A stretch of 64,000 nucleotides of DNA from an uncultured Bacteroidales bacterium (GTDB lineage Bacteria; Bacteroidota; Bacteroidia; Bacteroidales; ML635J-15): positions 625 through 64,624 of the forward strand of contig CAZTNS010000002.1 in assembly GCA_964615585.1 (NCBI GenBank), given 5' to 3'. The notes beneath the pieces were generated by a model. It worked only from the letters and a program-made list of their open reading frames with translations, ran no database searches and was not told the DNA's origin. How positions within the stretch are numbered: position 1 is the stretch's first letter; every line of letters starts with the position of its first letter. This document shows positions 1 to 10,403 of this stretch, piece by piece. The position numbers and the translations under genes are program-made.

Positions 1-1
1 T

Positions 2-568
2 GGTTACCAGAATCACAAGGATACCGGGAAGCATGTAATGTTTGTAATTCAAACCAGGGTTGTACCAGAACTTTTTTTGGATTTTTACCGGTTGCAGGTT
101 ATCGTTGCTGTCAATCAGCCCCTGCTCAATCATCAGGGCTTTGGAATAATCCGTCACAATATTCCTGGTGTAGGCATTTATCAGGCCGGCAGCTTGCTGG
201 TTTACAGCATCAATAAGCAACTGCAGTTTTACCGTAGCACCGGATTTAATGCTTTTTTCAAAGCCGTTTTCAATGCGTAGTATGGCGTGTTTTTCGCCTG
301 AAATGAGTTGATTATCAGCGCCGGGATTTTTTGCTGTGATATCAGTGACAAAAAAAGGCGAAGCCATGAATTTCTGTTCCAGCTCCCTGCTGGCCATGCT
401 GCGGTCTTCATCAACAATGAGCAATCGAATCTCTTTCATGTCAAAACTGGCAGCATAAACCAGTATCAGTGTCTGCACAAGGGGAAGCACAAAAATAAAT
501 GGCAACATCATTTTGTTGCGGAAAATCTGTCTGAACTCTTTATCCAGTAAATATCCAATCGTTCTCAT
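2..568 (-). CDS. ABC-2 type transporter permease, 5' portion (ORF continues past the left edge)
   Basis: Hand translation of the minus strand from ATG (566-568) gives MRTIGYLLDKEFRQIFRNKMMLPFIFVLPLVQTLILVYAASFDMKEIRLLIVDEDRS...YMLPGILVILVT, open to position 2. The N-terminus parallels the adjacent permease. It is absent from the ORF track because no stop lies in the window. It starts 4 nt after the stop of the upstream permease. Confidence 0.85.
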   Translation of the reverse strand, partial: MRTIGYLLDKEFRQIFRNKMMLPFIFVLPLVQTLILVYAASFDMKEIRLLIVDEDRSMASRELEQKFMASPFFVTDITAKNPGADNQLISGEKHAILRIENGFEKSIKSGATVKLQLLIDAVNQQAAGLINAYTRNIVTDYSKALMIEQGLIDSNDNLQPVKIQKKFWYNPGLNYKHYMLPGILVILVT

Positions 569-571
569 GGT

Positions 572-1678
572 TTATTCCAGTCTGAGTTTATAATTGCGTA
601 CACTTATGCTGACAAAAACAACCAGCATTCCTGTAAGTATCAGAATTTGTTGCCATATAAATGCCAATCCTGCACCTTTGAGCATGATGGATTTTATGAT
701 GTCAAGGTACCAGCGTGCCGGAATGACACAACTGATCCACTGCAATGGTTCTGGCATGTTTTCGATGGGAAAAATAAAGCCGGACAGCAACATGGTTGGC
801 AACATAAGCGCAAACATGGATATAAACATGGCACTTTGCTGCGTGTTGGTTACCGTTGAAATTAAAATGCCCAAAGCCAGCGCCGTAAGCACAAACAACA
901 CAGACACCAGCATCAACAATATTATGCTTCCGTCTATTGGCACACCAAACACAATATTTCCCACCAGGATAACTGAAACCGCGTTGGCAAACGCCAGTAT
1001 CACGTATGGCATGACTTTTCCGAGCACCACCTGTATGGGTTTGAGCGGCGATACAAGCAACACTTCCATGCTGCCGAACTCTTTTTCACGGGCAATGGAA
1101 ATGGATGACATCAGCGCTGATAACAACATCAGGATAAATGCCATGGTCCCCGGGACAAACATGAAGCCGGATTTCATCTCTTCGTTGAACATCATCCTGT
1201 TTTCGAGCTTAATGCCTCCTTGTTGTGGCATGCTTTCGTCTATGTCCGCAGCGTAATCCAGTATAATAGCCTCAGTGTATTGTCCTGTCAATTGCGAATA
1301 ATTCGGATCGGTGGCATCCAGTAAAAGCTGTACAGCAGGCTGATCGCCTTTCTGCAAATCTGTTGACAACCCGTTTGGAAACACAATCACTTCACGCACC
1401 TTTGCTTTCTTAAAAGCATCATGGATTTGTCCGGATGATTGCAGTTCCTCCACAATGTTAAAATACCCCGACGCTTCAATTTTACTGCGCAGTTCATAAG
1501 ATGCTGCATCATGGGCATGGTCGAGGATGGCAATGTCCACATCCTTCACTTCATTTTTGATGACGTAACCAAATATCAGGATTTGCACCACCGGCATACC
1601 AAAGAGAATCATCAGGGTGCGCATGTCCCTGAAAATATGTAAATATTCTTTTTTTAGTAATGCCAGAAATCGTTTCAT
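572..1678 (-). CDS. ABC-2 type transporter permease (YbhS/YbhR-like)
   Basis: 368 aa. It has an N-terminal KKEYLHIFRD motif, a large extracytoplasmic loop, then a cluster of hydrophobic helices typical of ABC-2 permeases. Operon context includes two ABC ATPases, HlyD, TolC and TetR. Confidence 0.85.
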   Translation of the reverse strand: MKRFLALLKKEYLHIFRDMRTLMILFGMPVVQILIFGYVIKNEVKDVDIAILDHAHDAASYELRSKIEASGYFNIVEELQSSGQIHDAFKKAKVREVIVFPNGLSTDLQKGDQPAVQLLLDATDPNYSQLTGQYTEAIILDYAADIDESMPQQGGIKLENRMMFNEEMKSGFMFVPGTMAFILMLLSALMSSISIAREKEFGSMEVLLVSPLKPIQVVLGKVMPYVILAFANAVSVILVGNIVFGVPIDGSIILLMLVSVLFVLTALALGILISTVTNTQQSAMFISMFALMLPTMLLSGFIFPIENMPEPLQWISCVIPARWYLDIIKSIMLKGAGLAFIWQQILILTGMLVVFVSISVRNYKLRLE

Positions 1679-1690
1679 ATGTATAAATTA

Positions 1691-1856
1691 GTCGGGAGTC
1701 TGAAGTCCGAAGTCGGGAGTTGGGAGTCCGAAGTTAAGAGGTGTTCTTCCGGCTTCCGTCTCCGGACTTCCGACTTTGCTAAAGCTCCATCGGACAAGTT
1801 TTGAATGTTGAGTTTTGTCATTTGTTATCTATTTGTGTTTTGTGTTTTGTGTATTG
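1691..1856. repeat. ORF-less intergenic hairpin cassette built from phased heptamers
   Basis: 1691-1734 reads GTCGGGA GTCTGAA GTCCGAA GTCGGGA GTTGGGA GTCCGAA GT (7-nt period). 1746-1774 (CTTCCGG CTTCCGT CTCCGGA CTTCCGA C) is its imperfect reverse complement. This is followed by the core GCTAAAGCTCCATCGGACAAGTTTTGA (1778-1804) and a T/G-rich heptamer tract (1813-1856). Confidence 0.8.
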
Positions 1857-2612
1857 TTATTTGTTATTTTTCACAAACGACCGTTTTCCGCGGGCAATTT
1901 TCACAAATACCTCTTCCATGTTGTCTTCACCGTATTCATGTTTCATGTGTTCCGGGGAATCCAATGCCACGATTTTTCCACTGACAAGGATAGCCACCCT
2001 GTCGCAATATTCAGCTTCATCCATATAGTGCGTTGTCACAAACACCGTAATTCCCTGATGCGCTGCCTCATAAATCATATCCCAAAACTGCCGCCTTGTG
2101 ATGGGGTCCACACCACTTGAGGGCTCATCAAGGAAAACAATGTCCGGGTTGTGGACTATGGCAACCGAAAAGGCGATTTTTTGTTTCCATCCCAACGGCA
2201 GCGAGCCGACAAGCATATTGGCTTTATCCTCAATACCCAGCTGTGACAACAAAACTTTGCTTCGCTTTTTGATTTCCTTCCGGGATAAACCATATATGCC
2301 ACCGTATAATCTGATGTTTTCCACGATGCTCAAATCTTCATACAGCGAAAATTTCTGGCTCATGTAACCGATGTTCCGTTTGATGGCATCGCTTTGTTTA
2401 TAGACATCAAATCCGGCAACGGAAATATCACCTGATGTGGGTTTCAATAAACCGGTAAGGATTTTTATAGCGGTGGTTTTACCGGCTCCGTTGGCTCCGA
2501 GAAAACCAAAAATATCGCCTTTGTACACATCAAAACTCAAGGCATCGTTGGCTGTAAAGCTGCCGAATTTCTTAACCAGGTTATGTACCCGTATCACTTT
2601 ATCGGTCTTCAT
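1857..2612 (-). CDS. ABC transporter ATP-binding protein (second NBD)
   Basis: 251 aa. Walker A is GANGAGKTT, the Walker B region is IVFLDEPSSGVD, and an H-loop (TTHYMDEAE) is present. It overlaps the upstream ATPase gene by 14 nt. Confidence 0.9.
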   Translation of the reverse strand: MKTDKVIRVHNLVKKFGSFTANDALSFDVYKGDIFGFLGANGAGKTTAIKILTGLLKPTSGDISVAGFDVYKQSDAIKRNIGYMSQKFSLYEDLSIVENIRLYGGIYGLSRKEIKKRSKVLLSQLGIEDKANMLVGSLPLGWKQKIAFSVAIVHNPDIVFLDEPSSGVDPITRRQFWDMIYEAAHQGITVFVTTHYMDEAEYCDRVAILVSGKIVALDSPEHMKHEYGEDNMEEVFVKIARGKRSFVKNNK

Positions 2613-3531
2613 CCTGCTCCTTGTTTTGTTTTGACATCAGTTCGATAAACACATCTTCAATGCCCGGTTTAATGGCTTTGCACGTCATGTTTTCAAAACC
2701 TTGTTGCCGGCATTCCGATTCAATGTCTTTGGCTGAGACACCGGCTGAAGGTATCACATGAAGCGTTTGCCCGAACAAACTAACCGATTCCACACTGCCG
2801 GAACGCTTCAGGCATACTTTCAGATGATACATATCATCAGCCTGTATGGCATACAATTTTTTGGGGAAACGCTGTGGGATATTGCCAGGACTGTCCACCG
2901 CCATGATTTGTCCTTTTTGCATCAAAGCAACACGGTCACACCGCATGGCTTCGTCCATATACGGTGTGGATACAAAGATGGTAATACCCTGCGCTTTCAA
3001 CTTATCCAGCATGTTCCAGAACTCCACACGGGATACTGCATCCACGCCGGTGGTGGGTTCATCCAAAAAAAGGAATTCCGGCTTGTGGATCAGCGCACAT
3101 GATAAAGCCAGCTTTTGTTTCATCCCGCCGCTGAGCTTGCCTGCACGACGCTTTTTAAACGGCTCAATCTGATGGTAAATATCTTTGACCAAATCATAAT
3201 TTTCCTCTATGCTGCTCCCAAATACAGAAGCGAAAAAATTCAGATTTTCTTCAACGCTCAAATCCTGATACAATGAAAATTTCCCGGGCATATATCCAAT
3301 CATACGGCGCAGTTGTTTGTAATCATCCACCACATCCAAATCGCCAAGCGTAATGCTTCCCGCATCGGGTAACAGCAAGGTTGACATCAACCGGATCAGC
3401 GTGGATTTCCCGGCACCATCAGGGCCGATGAGCCCGAACAATTCGCCATGCTGTATCTGTAAAGACACATCCCTCACCGCCCGGATTTTCCCAAAGGACT
3501 TACTGACATTATGTATCCGGATATCTGACAT
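2599..3531 (-). CDS. ABC transporter ATP-binding protein (first NBD)
   Basis: Walker A is GPDGAGKST, the signature is LSGGMKQKLAL, and Walker B is FLFLDEPTTGVD. I place the start at MSDIRIHNVSKSFGK (ATG 3529-3531). The track's longer 3630 start would overlap the HNH gene by 100 nt with non-homologous sequence. Confidence 0.85.
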   Translation of the reverse strand: MSDIRIHNVSKSFGKIRAVRDVSLQIQHGELFGLIGPDGAGKSTLIRLMSTLLLPDAGSITLGDLDVVDDYKQLRRMIGYMPGKFSLYQDLSVEENLNFFASVFGSSIEENYDLVKDIYHQIEPFKKRRAGKLSGGMKQKLALSCALIHKPEFLFLDEPTTGVDAVSRVEFWNMLDKLKAQGITIFVSTPYMDEAMRCDRVALMQKGQIMAVDSPGNIPQRFPKKLYAIQADDMYHLKVCLKRSGSVESVSLFGQTLHVIPSAGVSAKDIESECRQQGFENMTCKAIKPGIEDVFIELMSKQNKEQDEDR

Positions 3532-3872
3532 TACAGGCGTTTTTTTCGTTTGGCAAACAGGCGTTTTTGCTTCAGGCGTTCCGATGTACGGTTTTTGTCC
3601 ACATAGTCCGGTGGTTGTTTCCGCACCCATTTGATGAATTTTTCCAGTTCCGGATGGGATTTTAACGCATCAAAATTATTGTAGGTTTGTGCCAGTTCTC
3701 GTTCTGTGAACAGGGTGTGTACTTTGTTGTGACAGATGTGGTGCATAAACACTTTTTCGTTTCCGCCCATGCTTTTTGGTACCACGTGATGTTCACTGAC
3801 GGATTTACCGCAAGTCATTTCGCGTCCACAAAGCGGACAGTTGCCGAGATATTCGCCTTTTTTGCAGTTCAT
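3531..3872 (-). CDS. small HNH-type endonuclease domain protein
   Basis: Motifs are CPLCGREM...SEHHVVPKSMGG...HHICHNKVH (Cys pair plus HH...H-x3-H) and a basic C-terminal tail. The start is placed at MNCKKGEY (ATG 3870-3872). The track's upstream extension (to 3929) runs into the repeat cassette. Its stop TAA overlaps the ATPase ATG (TAATG). Confidence 0.7.
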   Translation of the reverse strand: MNCKKGEYLGNCPLCGREMTCGKSVSEHHVVPKSMGGNEKVFMHHICHNKVHTLFTERELAQTYNNFDALKSHPELEKFIKWVRKQPPDYVDKNRTSERLKQKRLFAKRKKRL

Positions 3873-3900
3873 AACGCATCTATTGATGAAATTCCAAATT

Positions 3901-4074
3901 TCAAATGACAAATAACAAATAAATTCCAATACTCAATTTTTGAAATTCCAAACTTGTCCGGTGAAGACAGATAAGGTTTGCTACAGTTTGTTTTGGTCAT
4001 TGTGATTTGTTTGTGTTTTGTATTTTGTCATTTGGTGCTTATTTGTGTTTTGAAATTTGATCATTGTCATTTAT
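3901..4074. repeat. intergenic hairpin cassette (ACAAA-rich arm / core / TTTGT-rich heptamer arm)
   Basis: The left arm is CAAATGACAAATAACAAATAAA (about 3902-3924). The core is AAACTTGTCCGGTGAAG (about 3950-3966). The right arm, about 3987-4074, is a 7-nt phased T/G tract containing TTTGTCATTTG, complementary to the left arm. It fills the whole HlyD-HNH gap. Confidence 0.75.
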
Positions 4075-4974
4075 TTAAAACATCACCTCTCCCGGCATCC
4101 CGATTTTGATGCGACCGTCATTTTTTACTTTTACTTCCATGGCATAAACCATATCCACACGTTCTTCTTTTGTTTGGATAACCGTTGGTGTAAATTCTGC
4201 TTCTGATGATACGCGGGACACGCGCCCGGGGTACTCGTAATATCCGCCATCCCTTTTGTCAATGCGAACGGTCACTTCCTCCCCGGTTTTCACTTCGGAA
4301 AGCTGATTGCCCGATATCCATGCTCTGAGTGTCATCTCATTCATGTCGGCCAGTTTTACCAAAGGCTTGCCGGGCATTACCAATTCATGCTGTTCAACAA
4401 ATTTTTCCAACACCGTAGCATCCATAGGGGACAACACGACAGCCCGTTCGATTCTATCACGCAGGCGGTTAATTCCGGCATCCAGCACATCCAGTTCGGC
4501 AAACAGGGATTTGTTTTGGGTTTTTATCTGCTCAATGTTTTTTTCGGTCATGCGGATTTGCCCCTGTATATCGTCCAACTGTTTTTCTGTAGCAGCCTTC
4601 TGCTTCAGCATGTTTTTGATGCGGGATTCATCTTTTCTCAGGGTGGCAAGCTTTTCTTCCTGCACCTCTACCTGGGCTGTTACAGACGGGAATTTTGCTT
4701 TTACGGCCTGTTTTTGCATTTCCAGTTTGCGGATTTGCAGGTAAAAATCTGTAGTGTCAATCACCGCAATGGTATCAGACCGATGTATTTCATCCCCTTC
4801 CTCCACTTTACACAGAATGCATTCGCCCTGTGTTTGCGATGAAATCACCACATCCCCTGATTCAAAATTGCCGTAAGCATCCGGCTCATCCGTTTTGTTG
4901 TTACAACCTGCCAGCAACAACAGCCCTGCCATTGCAATTACGCTGTATCTTTTCATGTTATTGTTCTGTTTCAT
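4075..4974 (-). CDS. HlyD-family periplasmic adaptor (membrane fusion protein, YbhG-like)
   Basis: 299 aa. It has a lipoprotein-like signal (LLLLAGCNNK), a long coiled-coil segment and beta-barrel ends typical of MFPs. It lies between TolC-like and ABC genes. Confidence 0.85.
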   Translation of the reverse strand: MKQNNNMKRYSVIAMAGLLLLAGCNNKTDEPDAYGNFESGDVVISSQTQGECILCKVEEGDEIHRSDTIAVIDTTDFYLQIRKLEMQKQAVKAKFPSVTAQVEVQEEKLATLRKDESRIKNMLKQKAATEKQLDDIQGQIRMTEKNIEQIKTQNKSLFAELDVLDAGINRLRDRIERAVVLSPMDATVLEKFVEQHELVMPGKPLVKLADMNEMTLRAWISGNQLSEVKTGEEVTVRIDKRDGGYYEYPGRVSRVSSEAEFTPTVIQTKEERVDMVYAMEVKVKNDGRIKIGMPGEVMF

Positions 4975-6256
4975 TTGTATCCATGTGTTTTCCGGTTACC
5001 GTTAAATATTGTATGATGGCTTTTGATTTTTTGATGCGATGGATTTCCAGTTTTATCCTGGCAGTTGCTTCCTGATTGACAGCTTCCAGGTAATCCGAGG
5101 CTGTAATGCTTCCCTCTACAAACTGCGATTCTTTTGCCCGGAGGATATCGCCCCTGAGTTCTATGATGGCTTCATCCTGGTTTATCATTTCGTCATACAC
5201 GCGGGCATCTTTGAGAAAAGATTCTGCTTCTGTATTTACTGCCTGTCTGAATGCATCTTTTCTGTTGTCAATTTGCTGTTTGGTCAAATCCAAAATCTGT
5301 TGCTCATGCTGAATTTTATTCCATTGCCATGGCGACCATGAAAATTTCACACCGACAATGGCAAAAGGTTCAAAATCATCGCTGAGCATATTCAACCCCG
5401 GGCGGCCGTATCCGGCTTGTCCGAAAGCAGCAAATTGCGGATAGCGCTCCCTGATGAGCATTTCTTTGCGCAATTCCATCTGTTTCTTTTGCAACACCAT
5501 GGCATCCAGTTCCGGCCTTCCAATGCCTTTCTGCAAACTTAAGTCACGGGCAGGTAACAGGAACTGAGCCAGTTCGGGGATTTTTTCTCCTGTAAGCAAT
5601 TCGAGCATTAAGACAGCCGTTTTCCTGGATTCTTCAGCTTCAAAAACCTGTTGTTCTATGCCCAGTTTTGTTGCTTCAAGCTCTTTGATGCCGGACGGGA
5701 GCATCATTTCATTGTCCATTGCCGCCTGTAATTCTTTCAGCTTATCCTCGATGCCGGCTTTTTTGATTTTCAGGATGCTGATTTGTTCCTGCAGCATCAA
5801 CACAGAATAATACAGTTCATTGACCTGTTTTCTGTGTGCATACAGATCAACTTTGATGTCTTGTGCCTTTATGCGTCCGGCAACTTCTTCAATTTCCCGG
5901 GCCACCGAAGTAGCCCCTCCATCCCAGATCACCTGCGACAATTCCGCATACACTTTGTACTGGTCTTTTGAAATGTCAGGCGTTTCAAAATTGAACATGG
6001 GGTTGTCTATTTCCAGCTTGGTCACATCCGATTGCCAGGTTGCCTGTCCTCCTATGTTCAATTGCGGCAGGTAATTGGTGTTAAGTGATTTCATTTTTAT
6101 GGATACGGCTTCTGATATCAGCGCCGGGTTTTTCATGGTGGGGTAATTTTTTTCCAGCCGCTTATAACACGTATCTATGGTAATGATATCCTGCGCTGCA
6201 ACTGAAGCAGCAAACCACATTAACCATATTATTACTGCAATTCGTTTCATAATCAA
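4958..6256 (-). CDS. TolC-family outer membrane efflux protein
   Basis: 432 aa with a signal peptide. It shows duplicated coiled-coil/beta architecture with typical TolC-like heptad-rich sequence. It overlaps the HlyD start by 17 nt. Confidence 0.85.
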   Translation of the reverse strand: MIMKRIAVIIWLMWFAASVAAQDIITIDTCYKRLEKNYPTMKNPALISEAVSIKMKSLNTNYLPQLNIGGQATWQSDVTKLEIDNPMFNFETPDISKDQYKVYAELSQVIWDGGATSVAREIEEVAGRIKAQDIKVDLYAHRKQVNELYYSVLMLQEQISILKIKKAGIEDKLKELQAAMDNEMMLPSGIKELEATKLGIEQQVFEAEESRKTAVLMLELLTGEKIPELAQFLLPARDLSLQKGIGRPELDAMVLQKKQMELRKEMLIRERYPQFAAFGQAGYGRPGLNMLSDDFEPFAIVGVKFSWSPWQWNKIQHEQQILDLTKQQIDNRKDAFRQAVNTEAESFLKDARVYDEMINQDEAIIELRGDILRAKESQFVEGSITASDYLEAVNQEATARIKLEIHRIKKSKAIIQYLTVTGKHMDTNETEQ

Positions 6257-6260
6257 GTCT

Positions 6261-6899
6261 TTATGCTTTTATGGCATTAATAACAAAATCTGCCAGGTGT
6301 TCTTTCCGGTAACTTATGATATCTTGAAAATTATCCTCATCCAGGCTGTAAAACCCTTTTAACAGTGGCTTTGCAGCAAAAGGAAAAACACTTAAACTCA
6401 GTATATTCAGAAACAAATCATCCGGGTTAACATCCCTGCGAATGATTCCCATATGCTGTTCATTGTTCACATTACTGTAAAAATTTTTTCTCACCACCTG
6501 GATGCGTTCCACCGGATACAAATCAATAAGTAGTTCAGGTGCCCTTTGTATCTCATTGAGCATAAAGAGGGGCAATAATTTATTCTGCATCAGAATTTCC
6601 TGGTGTTTTTTGAAAAAACGGCGGATGCTCTCAAAAACGGTCAGGTTATCTTCAAAAATTTGAATCAAGCCTTCTATCATTTCAATTAAAACACGTTCAA
6701 ACACGGCGTTGAAAAGTTTCTCTTTTGAACGATAATAGTAATGCAACAAGGCTTTATTCAGGCCGGCTTTGTCAGCAATTTCCTGCATACGTGCCCCATC
6801 AAAACCACGTTCCATAAAAACTTCCGAAGCAGCCTTTAAAATAACGGTTTCCGTTGATTGGGGCGTATTTGATTCGTTATTATTGTTGGTTCTGATCAT
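6261..6899 (-). CDS. TetR/AcrR family transcriptional regulator
   Basis: An N-terminal HTH is present (ILKAASEVFMERGFDGARMQEIADKAGLNKALLHYYYRSKEKLF). It is the first gene of the exporter operon, as in E. coli cecR-ybhGFSR. Confidence 0.9.
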   Translation of the reverse strand: MIRTNNNNESNTPQSTETVILKAASEVFMERGFDGARMQEIADKAGLNKALLHYYYRSKEKLFNAVFERVLIEMIEGLIQIFEDNLTVFESIRRFFKKHQEILMQNKLLPLFMLNEIQRAPELLIDLYPVERIQVVRKNFYSNVNNEQHMGIIRRDVNPDDLFLNILSLSVFPFAAKPLLKGFYSLDEDNFQDIISYRKEHLADFVINAIKA

Positions 6900-6937
6900 A
6901 TTAAATAGTTATTAAGTTTTGTTCTATTCTCAAATTT

Positions 6938-6969
6938 GATAGGATGGCATGATAGCGAGATGGGATAAG
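6938..6969. repeat. left arm of 8-mer-phased inverted repeat flanking the four-helix-bundle ORF
   Basis: The sequence is GATAGGAT GGCATGAT AGCGAGAT GGGATAAG (8-nt period). It resembles the minus-strand reading of the 7388-7478 tract, so the two arms are inverted. Confidence 0.7.
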
Positions 6970-6983
6970 ATTAAAAGGGTTTT

Positions 6984-7358
6984 TCACAATTTCCATTGCT
7001 CCGGTTCTGTGTACATGTTGATTAACATGGCAATGATATGTTCGTATTTTTCATAGAGTGACTTATGTTCAGCCAAATCAATGTAATTACATGCCAAGGC
7101 GTAATCAAGCCAAACTTGTGTTTCTGCTGCTTCACCTTCCGCATCATTTAGTTTTGCAACAAAAGATTTCGGATAACGTCTCTTTCTCCAAGCCTCGCCA
7201 ATCATTCCAGATACGTCGCGTGAAGAGCGCCTTGCCTGATCGGTAAGTGAGTATTTTTCTTCTTTAGGAAATTTCTTGCTGAGTTCAAAAACTTCCATGC
7301 CTGCTTCAAATGAAAGCTGATAAACCTTTAAATCTTTGTGTGTTCTGATTTTTTCCAT
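6984..7358 (-). CDS. four-helix-bundle protein (23S rRNA intervening-sequence protein / Avd-like family)
   Basis: 124 aa. The N-terminus is family-typical (DLKVYQLSFEAGMEVFELSKKFPKEEKYSLTDQARRSSRDV...AEGEAAETQVWLDYA). Confidence 0.85.
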   Translation of the reverse strand: MEKIRTHKDLKVYQLSFEAGMEVFELSKKFPKEEKYSLTDQARRSSRDVSGMIGEAWRKRRYPKSFVAKLNDAEGEAAETQVWLDYALACNYIDLAEHKSLYEKYEHIIAMLINMYTEPEQWKL

Positions 7359-7387
7359 ATCTAATGTTATTTATTTGTTTATTTACT

Positions 7388-7478
7388 TCTTATTCTATCC
7401 TTACATCTTCCGTTCGTACCATCGTGCTATCGTTCCATCGTGCCATCGTGCATTCGTTCCATCGTGCTATCGTTCCAT
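7388..7478. repeat. right arm: tandem phased 8-mers
   Basis: Read on the minus strand it is GATGGAAC GATAGCAC GATGGAAC GAATGCAC GATGGCAC GATGGAAC GATAGCAC GATGGTAC GAACGGAA GATG..., a strict 8-nt period over 9 or more units. Confidence 0.85.
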
Positions 7479-7644
7479 CATCAATCCTTTTTCAGTTATT
7501 ATCCTTACGGTTTAACTTTTTTATTTAACCAGATGGGCAAATTAAATTGATTTTTTGTTAATAACAAAATTTTTTTTTGATTAAATATTGTTGTTATTTT
7601 AATGTTTTGTTAAAATATTTGATGGGATTTTACTTATTTTTGTA

Positions 7645-8001
7645 ATGATGTCTGGAACACACAACATGTTATTCGTTATTGGCTTGCTGTTTCTGCTGTT
7701 ACTCAGCACCAACACAGAAGCTCAAAAAGTTTATAGCTGCGAGTACCGCAGCGATGCGGATGTTAATGTGTTTGTGGTTGATTACCGCAGTGATGCAGAC
7801 CTTATTGTTTACAAATGTGATTACCGCAGTGATGCAAAGGACAATGAAGGATTATGGTATTTTTGTGAATACCGCAGTGATGCAGACAAAAAAATATTTT
7901 TTGTGGATTACAGAAGCGATGCAGATCTAAAAATCTTTTTTACAGAGTACAGAAGTGACGCCGGATGGCGGAATAATGAAAAAACACATTTAATGTACTA
8001 A
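7645..8001 (+). CDS. small secreted six-repeat protein ([DE]YRSDA[DKG] core)
   Basis: 118 aa. A signal peptide (...LLLSTNTEAQ) is followed by six units of beta-like hydrophobic strand plus EYRSDAD/DYRSDAD. The true start may be the internal MLFVIG Met (7666), because a TAnnTTTG box (TATTTTTG, about 7635-7642) sits right before 7645. Confidence 0.7.
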   Translation: MMSGTHNMLFVIGLLFLLLLSTNTEAQKVYSCEYRSDADVNVFVVDYRSDADLIVYKCDYRSDAKDNEGLWYFCEYRSDADKKIFFVDYRSDADLKIFFTEYRSDAGWRNNEKTHLMY

Positions 8002-8010
8002 TAAAAATTA

Positions 8011-8361
8011 ATGATTATGAAACATTTAATTGGCATTCTTGGGGTTTTATTTTTTGCTTTAATCAGTTTCAATGGCATGGCACAAAAGGTATTTGCAACA
8101 GATTCAAAGTACAATGCTGATATCAAGGTTTTTGTTACTGACAGCAAATACGATGCTGACCTGGTGGTTCACAAAGTATCTTCAAAGTACGATGCTGACG
8201 ATAATAAGGGATTGTGGTTTTTTACAGATTCAAAATATGATGCCGACAAAATCATTTGGTTTGCTGATTCCAAATATGATGCCGACCTGATCATTTATTT
8301 TACCGACAGCAAGTACAACGCTGAATGGCGGGATTCAAGCAAAAAACACTTGATGTATTAG
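8011..8361 (+). CDS. small secreted six-repeat protein (DSKY[DN]A[DE] core), paralog of the preceding gene
   Basis: 116 aa with the same architecture and spacing as 7645-8001. Both have a KVY/KVF start after the signal peptide, a central DN[EK]GLW[YF]F unit and a C-terminal W-R-x-x-x-K-x-HLMY. The repeat core is different. Confidence 0.7.
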   Translation: MIMKHLIGILGVLFFALISFNGMAQKVFATDSKYNADIKVFVTDSKYDADLVVHKVSSKYDADDNKGLWFFTDSKYDADKIIWFADSKYDADLIIYFTDSKYNAEWRDSSKKHLMY

Positions 8362-8385
8362 CGTAATAATTTTATTGTAGCTATG

Positions 8386-8408
8386 GCCCCAAAAACGGGG
8401 CTTTTTTT
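8386..8408 (+). terminator. rho-independent terminator candidate
   Basis: GCCCC AAAAAC GGGGC is followed by TTTTTTT, which abuts the ATG at 8409. Confidence 0.5.
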
Positions 8409-10403
8409 ATGAAAAAGACCCGAATTATGCTTATCTTATTGATTTGCCTGATTGGTTTTATCGTTCCGGCTTATTTTATCACCAGAAGCGGAATTAAAAC
8501 ATTTTATAAGCAATTTTTCCCAATGTCAGATGAGCTGGTAAGCAGAAAGGACATTGAATATGAAAATATGGGCTTTTTATGGCAAAACGGGAATCCGGCA
8601 CTGTCGTTTAAAGGGTTTTTAGTTAAAAAATCCCCAGACAGCCGGGATACTTTGTTTTACGCTGAGCATTTTGTAATCAGCGCAAACTTGAAACCCAAAA
8701 ACAAGCATGGGACAGGCGTAAAACTCATCTTGCTCTCACCTCAAATACACATATACCCGGACAGTATTTCTGGCAAACAAGAAGTTTCAGAAATGCCTGC
8801 CCATGGTGAAATAAAAACATCACCAACACTATACGTTACCAACCTATCCATTCATGATCATACTTCCGAAAAATCCAGGGTCATTCACGGCATACACCTG
8901 AAAGTTGAACCAGTATCCAACAGCATCCACATACAGGCCAAACACCAGTCTTTCCCCGGCTATTTATTTCACGGGGGAACGTATTTTTCAGCTCAGGACG
9001 GACACTATTATTTTGACAGCAGCTTTGTGGACTTGAATGATGTCAGGTTAACGAATCTAAACCTGCATATTCAAACACACCGTCGCAGCGCCAGTGACAT
9101 TACCTGGGAAACATGGCTCGACAGCACAAGGCTTGAACCATTTTCCACGAGCAGTTTACAAATCAAGGGATTTATTAAATATCATTCGTCAGGCAGTTAT
9201 TCTGACTATGGCAATTCCGAGAACACACACGGACAGCTTATTTGTAGCCTTGGGTCCGATAGTGGCAAAATTGACACAATGCGCATATTGGTCAACAGAA
9301 AAAAAAGCAGCAGTTACAATACCAACAACTTAGCATCCAAGTTAAAATTGGATATTACAAGTCACGATTCATTTATGCACATTCATACTGTCCACAACCG
9401 GAAGGAGGAAAGCGTAACACAGAGAATCAGACATGTGGCCGACATGAATGCTGAAGACATCAATGTACTCAAAGCTTTCACGTTACAAGGTAACATTGAC
9501 GCAGATTATAAATATTATACCACCGGAACAACTGGCGGACAAACAATGGGTTATTCAGAAGCTGACATACAGATGCAACATTTTCATAACACAAATCATA
9601 TCTCTCATAGTGCAGGAGAGTGGGGAAGCAAATGGATTTACACAAGCAGCAAAAATGATCTGTCAGTAGCTGTCAATTTGGATGATATATTTGATCATAT
9701 ATTTTTAAATGGTAAAACTGCAGCTATTAACACCGATATACAAATACGCAGCCTGAACATTCCCGGTTCAAAAAGGACAAGACAAATTCAAATGTCAGAT
9801 AATGAGATCAAAATACCAAGGGTTGATTTTCTTAAAAAACTGGATATGTCCTTTTCCATCTTGGCCGATACCCTTTATTACGATTCTAAACTGCTGGCCA
9901 CAAATAACATCATAAAAATAAACTCTTTGTGCAAAGAAACTGATTTCACCGGGCATTTTCATGTATGCAAAAACATCAACGGCCCTCTAACACTGGATAT
10001 ACAAGGACAATCAATGCAAGGATTCATTGGAAATATATCTACAACCGGCTTAACCATTAAAGATAAAAACAGACTCCCACTCATCAGCAGAAATATAAAA
10101 CTTGAACCGGCCCCAGGTATTGTAAAAGGTTTTGAGATACCATTTTCCTATGATGGTAAGAATTTCAGCATTGAGAGAACAAGCATAAAGACAAGCGATT
10201 TTTTACTGCATCTAAGCGGAACCGGCAACAAAGAAAATCAGCAGTTCACATTGGGACTTACAGCGCCTACTCAACATTTCACAGGGCCTGCCAAAAGAAT
10301 ATTAAAGCAAAAATCTGATTCCACAAGCAAAGATTTAAATACTGTATTTATGCATATTAATCGAGATATGGGAAGTGTTAATATAAAAACCATGGCTCAA
10401 TGA
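8409..10403 (+). CDS. hypothetical N-terminally membrane-anchored protein (possibly AsmA-like)
   Basis: 664 aa with one N-terminal TM helix. The long beta-rich, Ser/His/Asn-rich body only loosely resembles AsmA/TamB-type proteins. No motif is secure enough for assignment. Confidence 0.4.
   Translation: MKKTRIMLILLICLIGFIVPAYFITRSGIKTFYKQFFPMSDELVSRKDIEYENMGFLWQNGNPALSFKGFLVKKSPDSRDTLFYAEHFVISANLKPKNKHGTGVKLILLSPQIHIYPDSISGKQEVSEMPAHGEIKTSPTLYVTNLSIHDHTSEKSRVIHGIHLKVEPVSNSIHIQAKHQSFPGYLFHGGTYFSAQDGHYYFDSSFVDLNDVRLTNLNLHIQTHRRSASDITWETWLDSTRLEPFSTSSLQIKGFIKYHSSGSYSDYGNSENTHGQLICSLGSDSGKIDTMRILVNRKKSSSYNTNNLASKLKLDITSHDSFMHIHTVHNRKEESVTQRIRHVADMNAEDINVLKAFTLQGNIDADYKYYTTGTTGGQTMGYSEADIQMQHFHNTNHISHSAGEWGSKWIYTSSKNDLSVAVNLDDIFDHIFLNGKTAAINTDIQIRSLNIPGSKRTRQIQMSDNEIKIPRVDFLKKLDMSFSILADTLYYDSKLLATNNIIKINSLCKETDFTGHFHVCKNINGPLTLDIQGQSMQGFIGNISTTGLTIKDKNRLPLISRNIKLEPAPGIVKGFEIPFSYDGKNFSIERTSIKTSDFLLHLSGTGNKENQQFTLGLTAPTQHFTGPAKRILKQKSDSTSKDLNTVFMHINRDMGSVNIKTMAQ

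Follow-up and report, generated by a model that had tools for sequence, protein, structure and literature searches.

The question raised here is why an efflux operon in an uncultured Bacteroidales bacterium (lineage ML635J-15) carries, between the genes for its HlyD-family periplasmic adaptor and its first ABC ATPase, a small HNH-type protein gene together with a block of short repeats. The locus lies in a 64,000-nucleotide stretch of contig CAZTNS010000002.1 (GenBank assembly GCA_964615585.1, positions 625 to 64,624), hereafter the window, and window coordinates count from its first base. An earlier interpretation made from the letters of the window, the sequence-only reading below, took the nuclease gene and the repeats for a selfish or homing-type insertion that had become co-transcribed with its host operon. 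That reading describes the locus largely correctly. On the nature of the gene, comparison with relatives leads us to a different answer, which we regard as probable: far from being a homing element, the HNH gene is an old, vertically inherited and selectively maintained single-copy resident, and the history of the adjoining repeat cassette is a separate one.

An old HNH gene in the adaptor/ATPase junction

In the genome of this study (G000; other G numbers denote relatives, and L numbers denote loci), the distance from the HlyD stop codon (4075-4077) to the ATPase-1 start (3531) was measured at 543 bp, close to the 540 bp or so given by the sequence-only reading. The interval consists of a cassette, a leader and one open reading frame (ORF), and the features at the junction are as follows.

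4075-4974 with the stop codon, 4078-4974 without it, minus strand: HlyD-family periplasmic adaptor, 299 aa (Pfam HlyD_3, 9e-14)
3894-4074, no strand assigned: repeat cassette without an ORF, in the HlyD/HNH spacer, 181 bp
3873-3893, minus strand: HNH leader, 21 nt (AATTTCATCAATAGATGCGTT), abutting the HNH ATG
3531-3872 with the stop codon, 3534-3872 without it, minus strand: HNH ORF, 113 aa (NCBIfam NF058586, weak Pfam HNH_5)
2599-3531 with the stop codon, 2602-3531 without it, minus strand: ABC ATPase 1, 310 aa (Pfam ABC_tran, 1.3e-29)

The TAA of the HNH gene (3533-3531) and the ATG of the ATPase gene (3531-3529) share one base, which confirms the TAATG overlap first described; G000, G008, G003, G001 and G006 all retain this arrangement of stop and start codons.

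In at least eight other genera or families of the order (L104-L110, L113, L114), HlyD is joined directly to the ATPase gene, the two being 7-80 nt apart. The expectation that the adaptor normally stands directly before the ATPase was therefore borne out, as was the view that something has been added here. Because other families join HlyD to the ATPase directly, the 540 bp count as an insertion relative to the ancestral adaptor-ATPase junction, and for the HNH gene the insertion is an old one.

The HNH gene is single-copy in the genome. The operon is present in 10 of 13 genomes of the genus, and in seven of these ten the HNH gene is intact in the identical slot. The matching slot is occupied as well in G016, a genome from another genus of the family, so that the full set of occupied slots is that of G000, G001, G002, G003, G005, G006, G008 and G016. 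In G007, G009 and G012, just the last 5-30 HNH codons remain, fused to the ATPase start. These are three independent deletions that left remnants, rather than empty target sites, and the gene is dispensable in this lineage.

Where it persists, the gene has evolved much as its neighbors have. Protein identities for HNH, ATPase-1 and HlyD, in that order, are 81, 82 and 83% with G003, 75, 71 and 75% with G001, and 59, 57 and 46% with G016, the HNH value tracking those of the flanking genes. The ratio of nonsynonymous to synonymous substitution rates (dN/dS) is 0.024-0.077 for HNH; the genes on either side give 0.03-0.13. Most pairs of species have reached saturation at synonymous sites. GC content is 0.451 for HNH against 0.44-0.47 for the operon, and at third codon positions 0.496 against 0.48-0.52. 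A tree of ATPase-1 plus ATPase-2 shows the genus to be monophyletic, with the HNH gene found in all three of its subclades; the gene is therefore older than the genus. The single copy, purifying selection, saturated synonymous sites and host-like GC speak against the selfish or homing-type insertion proposed by the sequence-only reading.

The slot shows other insertions as well. At L097 (G002, about 1280-1500), L096 (G009) and L099 (G005), an insert of about 200 nt lies between the HNH stop and the ATPase start; it is flanked by a duplicated ATGTCAGAA, resembling a target-site duplication, and holds three repeats of about 20 nt, TTACCCC(N)AWWWTRTTACAA. In G035, from another family (L102), a gene for a 146-aa DUF2147 protein (Pfam, 8.7e-38) fills the adaptor/ATPase slot behind a short repeat spacer, and in G025 and G029 the slot contains inverted-repeat spacers without an ORF. 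The DUF2147 gene and the inverted-repeat spacers imply that the slot receives insertions repeatedly.

A fast-changing intergenic repeat beside the HNH gene

Read on the minus strand, the cassette runs from an A/C-rich arm (4074-3985) through a core, CTTATCTGTCTTCACCGGACAAGTTT (about 3971-3946), to a T/G-rich arm (3945-3895). The arms and core named by the sequence-only reading could be located: CAAATAA occurs three times (3902-3922) and TTTGTAT 3.3 times (4010-4033), both with period 7, and the core AAACTTGTCCGGTGAAG lies at 3950-3966. The arms are facing, phased short-repeat tracts complementary to each other, and they form an imperfect inverted repeat (I1), with 74% complementarity between arms of 42 nt; a pair of 18-nt arms reaches 89%. 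Of the hairpin cassette proposed for this interval, the inverted repeat stands but the sense-strand hairpin does not, as the fold of 3873-4077 does not exceed that of shuffled sequences (z = -1.06; 25 of 200 shuffles equal it). The antisense strand of the cassette gives z = -2.5, and the operon's second cassette, folded as 1679-1859, is a real hairpin (z = -4.9). The two cassettes had been described as oppositely oriented, the second at 1691-1856. The core is indeed inverted, its 11-mer CGGACAAGTTT lying in inverse orientation at 1791-1801, but the TTTGT tract (family D2) is on one strand in both, so this is no simple inversion. Nothing but the 26-nt core stands between the arms, and the HNH gene lies outside both of them. 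Neither the 28-nt core unit described below nor its array in G007 folds better than shuffles, and a search of window 1-9000 with the Rfam 15 covariance models yielded nothing at E <= 1.

The independence of cassette and gene is clearest between strains. The HNH proteins of G000 and G008 are identical and the flanking DNA is 98.6-99.2% identical, yet their cassettes are non-homologous: in place of window 3894-4070, G008 has 115 unrelated nt that form a GGAAGTCC/GGACTCCGG-type hairpin. The alignment picks up again at 3893, and the leader at 3873-3893 is retained in the G008-type strain despite its differing cassette. Because identical HNH proteins carry non-homologous cassettes, the cassette must change independently of the gene. 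Two further spacers of the operon differ between these strains. The four-helix-bundle gene cassette at 6908-7487 (580 bp) is missing in the G008-type strain, which has 29 other nt there, and the cassette between ATPase-2 and the permease is tandemly duplicated in G008 (window 1705-1831 against L010 6035-6221), with about 127 nt repeated and a 60-nt joiner. Independent Logan contigs of two other metagenomes, X2 and X3, show both the exchange at 3894-4070 and the absence of the four-helix-bundle cassette, while X1 has the G000 form. Spacers in other species hold other tracts, such as (ACTCAGA)n and (CCTCAAA)n, and in G016 the HNH gene has a 29-nt spacer with no cassette and no repeats.

No second full-length copy of the cassette was found in G000 or in 14 relatives; what recurs are modules of 20-80 nt. 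Arm and core modules occur at 1-21 places in each of ten genus genomes out of ten, and in none of five genomes of other families. On contigs C17, C52 and C90, four-helix-bundle genes have arm modules nearby, at distances of 40-450 nt, with matches of 17-29 nt at 96-100% identity and the same layout of A/C arm followed by T/G arm. An exact copy of the 17-mer core is present at just one further site in the genome, 29686-29702, where it reads CTTCACCGGACAAGTTT on the plus strand, inside ...CTGCCTCCGCTAAAGCTTCACCGGACAAGTTTTGAGC... More broadly, the core is part of a 28-nt unit, CCGTCT(T/C)C...CGCCGGACAAG, found in 0-68 copies per genus genome and absent from 28 relatives outside the genus; a reversed-pattern control gave 0 matches. 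A genome-wide compositional scan for paired A/C and T/G arms was either overly strict or returned approximately the shuffle background. The cassette is an intergenic repeat made up of genus-specific modules, fast-changing and unrelated to the HNH gene.

Copy number of the core is unrelated to the presence of HNH (Mann-Whitney p = 0.88), and the most copies, 68, are held by G007, which has lost the gene. The idea that the HNH protein mobilizes the repeats was rejected on these grounds. We also rejected derivation from a miniature inverted-repeat transposable element (MITE) or other transposon: complete copies that end in terminal inverted repeats and are bordered by target-site duplications were absent from G000 and from the 14 relatives.

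G007 is unusual in another respect: it shows, on many contigs (for example L116-L125), a burst of the genus-specific core repeat, made up here of tandem 15-mers, (CCGTCTTCACTTCAT)n(TACGCCGGACAAGTT)m, and often placed at contig ends, and its 68 pattern matches, some nested in one array, compare with 0-16 in sister species. In the metagenomes, arm module CAAATTTCAAATGACAAATAACAAATAAATTCC (window 3889-3931) is also present on unrelated contigs, with word depth reaching 278x in X1, and must therefore be abundant in the community beyond this locus.

The cassette may be compared with those that carry genes for four-helix-bundle proteins (PF05635/TIGR02436). Like them, 3894-4074 has an A/C arm followed by a T/G arm, draws on common arm modules, and undergoes strain-level turnover; unlike them, it has no ORF between its arms, weak complementarity (74%), and a non-significant sense-strand fold.

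The HNH protein belongs to a stand-alone family

Proteins of the HlpB-like family are zinc-finger His-Me proteins of about 100 aa that bind DNA, and the role proposed for HlpB is the rescue of recombination intermediates. NCBIfam model NF058586 (HlpB) matches the HNH protein nearly end to end, positions 5-99 of its 99 aligning with residues 8-103 (E 3.5e-21, 75.5 bits), and the Pfam HNH_5 match is sub-threshold (4.6e-4). The curated equivalog cut-off of NF058586 is 130 bits. Since the score lies under that cut-off, the function of HlpB is not simply transferable; the protein resembles a stand-alone protein of the HlpB/YisB type, homologous to HlpB but apparently not its equivalog, and a function of the DNA-repair type may be suggested for it. 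The gene is a further member of a known stand-alone HNH family in a new genomic context.

The motif reads H28H29xxP32 ... C47H48xxxH52 and is followed by a basic C-terminal tail. Residues C12, C15, H28, H29, P32, C47, H48 and H52 do not vary among the family members compared, 12 of them close and 34 diverse. These comprise the general-base His with its xxP, together with the C-terminal metal-binding His (H28, H29, P32, H48, H52), and Cys residues of the zinc-binding pairs that frame the motif (C12, C15, C47). Where the canonical fourth Cys would be, all 12 close members and most of the 34 diverse members have a His (H44). The sequence-only reading had called for an alignment of the catalytic residues. 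Its outcome is mixed, in that the His, Pro and Cys positions are invariant but the canonical H-N-H Asn is not conserved: N39 is replaced by Ser, Lys or Arg in orthologs, and no Asn is invariant in either the 12 close or the 34 diverse members.

Searching the PDB by sequence gave a single match, to the HNH domain in 6me0, a group II intron maturase, in an alignment that sets CPLCG...EHHVVPKSMGG...HHICHNKVH against the canonical motif. An AlphaFold model of the protein (predicted local distance difference test score, pLDDT, 81.8) has strands at 25-29 and 40-44 and a helix at 45-54, an order that might represent a beta-beta-alpha-metal fold, then a helical half and the basic tail. Its best Foldseek neighbors, all at weak E-values, include Hpy99I, the HNH domain of Cas9, and Gme HNH (4H9D; probability 0.80, TM score 0.46 over 59 columns). 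Neither Pfam nor the model showed an extra DNA-recognition domain in the 113 residues.

According to the summary of earlier work in PMC3765158, Bacillus subtilis HlpB binds DNA cooperatively, with cleavage undetected, and hlpB is reported to be essential unless addAB is deleted, that is, unless the AddAB end-resection complex is removed. The HNH protein resembles HlpB in being a single-domain protein of about 100 aa with an end-to-end profile match, the HH pair, terminal His and Cys ligands, and a single chromosomal copy. It differs in its sub-cut-off score (75.5 against 130), its location inside an efflux operon, and its dispensability; the three natural losses argue against HlpB-like essentiality. 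Gmet_0936, the Gme HNH nicking endonuclease (PDB 4H9D; PMC3765158), is similarly a small stand-alone zinc-binding HNH protein and is the structural neighbor of highest probability, but the PDB sequence search misses it, the structural match has an E-value of 0.4, and the two differ in the helical half at the C-terminus.

A scan of 1.8 billion representative proteins returned 490 family clusters (at 50% identity) with E<1e-10; among the best 150 matches listed, lengths are mostly 90-130 aa. The best homologs outside the lineage are 45-58% identical and come from Saprospiraceae, Burkholderiales, Alphaproteobacteria and Myxococcota. Across the order itself, a homolog was found in 1 of 400 other genomes sampled, at 44% identity. 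None of the distant homologs whose neighborhoods were examined adjoins an HlyD/ABC pump. Their contexts are steady within each lineage and unrelated across lineages (for example ETF-ubiquinone oxidoreductase, ETF-QO, as upstream neighbor, a place between LysR and RidA, or LolD/DnaE), so that no conserved functional neighbors were found among them; the pattern fits a small cellular gene. None of 73 distant loci carries comparable repeats, which is the result of the check, put forward in the sequence-only reading, for repeats beside HNH homologs. The nuclease that rides with a repeat cassette, as envisaged there, is accordingly not seen: G016 has the gene and no cassette, the 73 distant loci lack repeats, and cassettes are exchanged while HNH stays unchanged. 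The same reading had set homing against a conserved, syntenic and repeat-free presence of HNH homologs in this exporter operon family across distant taxa. Within the lineage such a conserved, syntenic presence is found, but in distant taxa the homologs lie outside exporter operons.

The host operon

The remaining features of the operon, all in the same region of the window, are listed here.

6908-7487, minus strand: cassette with 8-mer arms carrying a four-helix-bundle gene for a 23S intervening-sequence (IVS) protein (gene 6987-7358), in the operon leader
6264-6899, minus strand: TetR regulator, operon member
4961-6256, minus strand: TolC-like outer membrane protein (OMP), operon member
1857-2612 with the stop codon, 1860-2612 without it, minus strand: ABC ATPase 2, 251 aa (Pfam ABC_tran, 2.5e-28)
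1679-1856, no strand assigned: second cassette without an ORF, in the ATPase-2/permease spacer, with a GTCGGGAGT/ACTTCCGAC hairpin, the inverted core and a TTTGT tract
575-1678, minus strand: ABC-2 permease, the first of two, the second being upstream of 568

The four-helix-bundle gene matches Pfam 23S_rRNA_IVP (1.5e-28). The HlyD gene also matches Pfam HlyD_D23 (3.5e-9) and the NCBIfam models RND_mfp and HlyD, and ATPase-1 matches the DrrA-type model and the N-terminal half of RbbA (NCBIfam); both ATPases are transporter subunits of the DrrA/RbbA type. The layout is like that of the YbhGFSR type in E. coli in that adaptor, ATPase(s) and a pair of ABC-2 permeases follow one another in this order downstream of a TetR-family regulator, and in that the ATPases match RbbA/YbhF-type halves. 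It is unlike that type in its separate genes for nucleotide-binding domains, its added OMP gene, and the intercalated HNH gene and cassettes.

A terminator scan evaluated against shuffles found no sense-strand terminator in the cassette, sigma-70-type promoter and terminator scans of the cassette did not exceed shuffle expectation, and a full Bacteroidetes-type TTTG..TAnnTTTG site is absent from 1500-7700. Because the stop/start overlap is kept in orthologs and there is no sense-strand terminator, the HNH gene appears positioned for co-expression with the operon. Co-transcription is plausible, and the overlap suggests translational coupling of HNH to the ATPase.

Alternative explanations

If a free-standing homing endonuclease had cut the adaptor-ATPase junction and been copied in along with the cassette, later to be co-transcribed, several features would be accounted for. 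Like phage free-standing HNH homing endonucleases (T4 MobA-E and the I-HmuI type; His-Me group 1, PMC5714182), the gene is inserted between conserved cistrons and is probably expressed with them; nothing occupies the junction in its ancestral form, family members are scattered thinly over the order (2 of 401 genomes), and the tree can be read as two possible arrivals in one slot, in g1 and g5. The resemblance ends there. Our gene lacks signs of mobility and the accessory DNA-binding domain of those enzymes, being 113 aa in all; it is single-copy, old and vertical, with saturated synonymous sites, host-like dN/dS and ameliorated GC. Its absences within the genus are decayed remnants, empty sites being found only in other genera and families, its homologs elsewhere occupy stable chromosomal contexts, and the cassette varies independently of it. 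We judge homing very unlikely. A phage origin was considered separately and dropped, the evidence being just a weak PHROG HNH match (E 4.9e-4). Alternatively, the gene might have come in as cargo: a repeat-arm cassette of the IVS type would have brought it into the spacer by the same unknown mechanism as the four-helix-bundle gene that lies 3 kb upstream, with one arm lost later. The adjoining cassette does use the arm modules of four-helix-bundle cassettes, the operon's own such cassette is a strain-level presence/absence polymorphism, and the slot in another family holds DUF2147 behind a short repeat spacer. But both arms lie upstream of HNH at every orthologous locus, with no downstream arm and the gene abutting the ATPase; the G016 gene and the distant homologs have no arms at all; and core copy number is, as noted, independent of HNH presence. 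This too seems improbable.

A functional tie to the exporter could take the form of a secreted nuclease toxin or bacteriocin, or of a DNA-protecting or repair factor co-induced by a genotoxic substrate. The conservation of the HNH/ATPase overlap across species, the long-term linkage under selection, and the TetR control of the operon would all suit such a tie. The pump, however, is of the ABC-2/DrrA efflux type, with no type I secretion ABC protein bearing a fused permease; the ORFs of the operon are all accounted for and include no candidate immunity gene; the HNH ORF has no evident signal sequence; homologs in other phyla never adjoin such pumps; and the pump operon persists without HNH in most of the order and after the three losses in the genus. 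We think a tie of this kind highly improbable. An ABC-type ATPase next to an HNH nuclease gene also recalls the Septu defense pair, and the gene does adjoin a P-loop ABC ATPase. The family scans refute the idea, which we hold to have practically no chance of being correct: PADLOC gave no match for HNH, PtuA matched ATPase-2 marginally (E 0.0038, 48 residues) and ATPase-1 not at all, and both ATPases are transporter subunits of the DrrA/RbbA type followed by two ABC-2 permeases. Lastly, the spacer could be a recurrent landing pad for an unknown process of cassette exchange, in which cassettes with short-repeat arms would bring small genes or ORF-less modules into intercistronic spacers, replace them and take them out again. 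Candidate deliveries would be the four-helix-bundle protein, the DUF2147 gene of the other family and possibly HNH, once in g1 and once more in g5. We consider this unlikely; if it were true, HNH would be a cargo that arrived long ago and was then fixed, and the process would resemble that of integron gene cassettes, though with no known recombinase.

Several observations weigh against our preferred account of HNH as an old, selectively maintained resident. In the ATPase tree, G016 clusters with genus g4, which lacks HNH (support 0.985), and this means either a clean loss of HNH in g4 or a double entry of HNH into one slot; the latter would hint at some site preference. The lasting linkage to the pump could mean a hidden functional tie. 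The HlpB score falls far short of the equivalog cut-off, and the best Foldseek neighbors, although all HNH proteins, are weak (E 0.29-0.55). Finally, the sequence is carried by DNA metagenome runs only, so co-transcription and coupling are things we infer.

Taking HNH as such a resident, we envisage the following history. The gene would have reached an ancestor of the genus by lateral transfer, entering a TetR-controlled efflux operon (OMP-HlyD-ABC2) at the spacer between the adaptor gene and that of the first ATPase. Vertical inheritance under purifying selection followed, with the gene placed for expression from the operon mRNA and its stop, overlapping the ATPase start, suggestive of translational coupling; a dispensable gene, it was deleted three times. 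The upstream cassette, on this view, is an ORF-less part of a genus-wide, modular population of short-repeat-armed elements, with the arm modules seen at four-helix-bundle genes. Such cassettes colonize intercistronic spacers and are exchanged, duplicated or lost among near-identical strains. Our data show the position, synteny, copy number and selection of the gene and its independence from the cassette; its lateral origin, its co-transcription and coupling, and a function of the DNA-repair type are inferred.

Implications

The case as a whole is ordinary to mildly interesting. For the HNH family, it offers a clean example of a small gene, probably acquired laterally, that was captured by an operon and has long evolved as its host genes do, while still dispensable. 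It is also a caution that a nuclease gene adjoining repeats need not form a mobile unit with them. The strain-level turnover of the cassette is a more interesting result than the HNH gene itself. Strains that are 99% identical differ in three spacers of a single operon, and arm modules are shared with four-helix-bundle cassettes. These observations lend independent support to the idea that the repeat-armed cassettes of Bacteroidota may be intergenic elements of an undescribed kind, and active ones.

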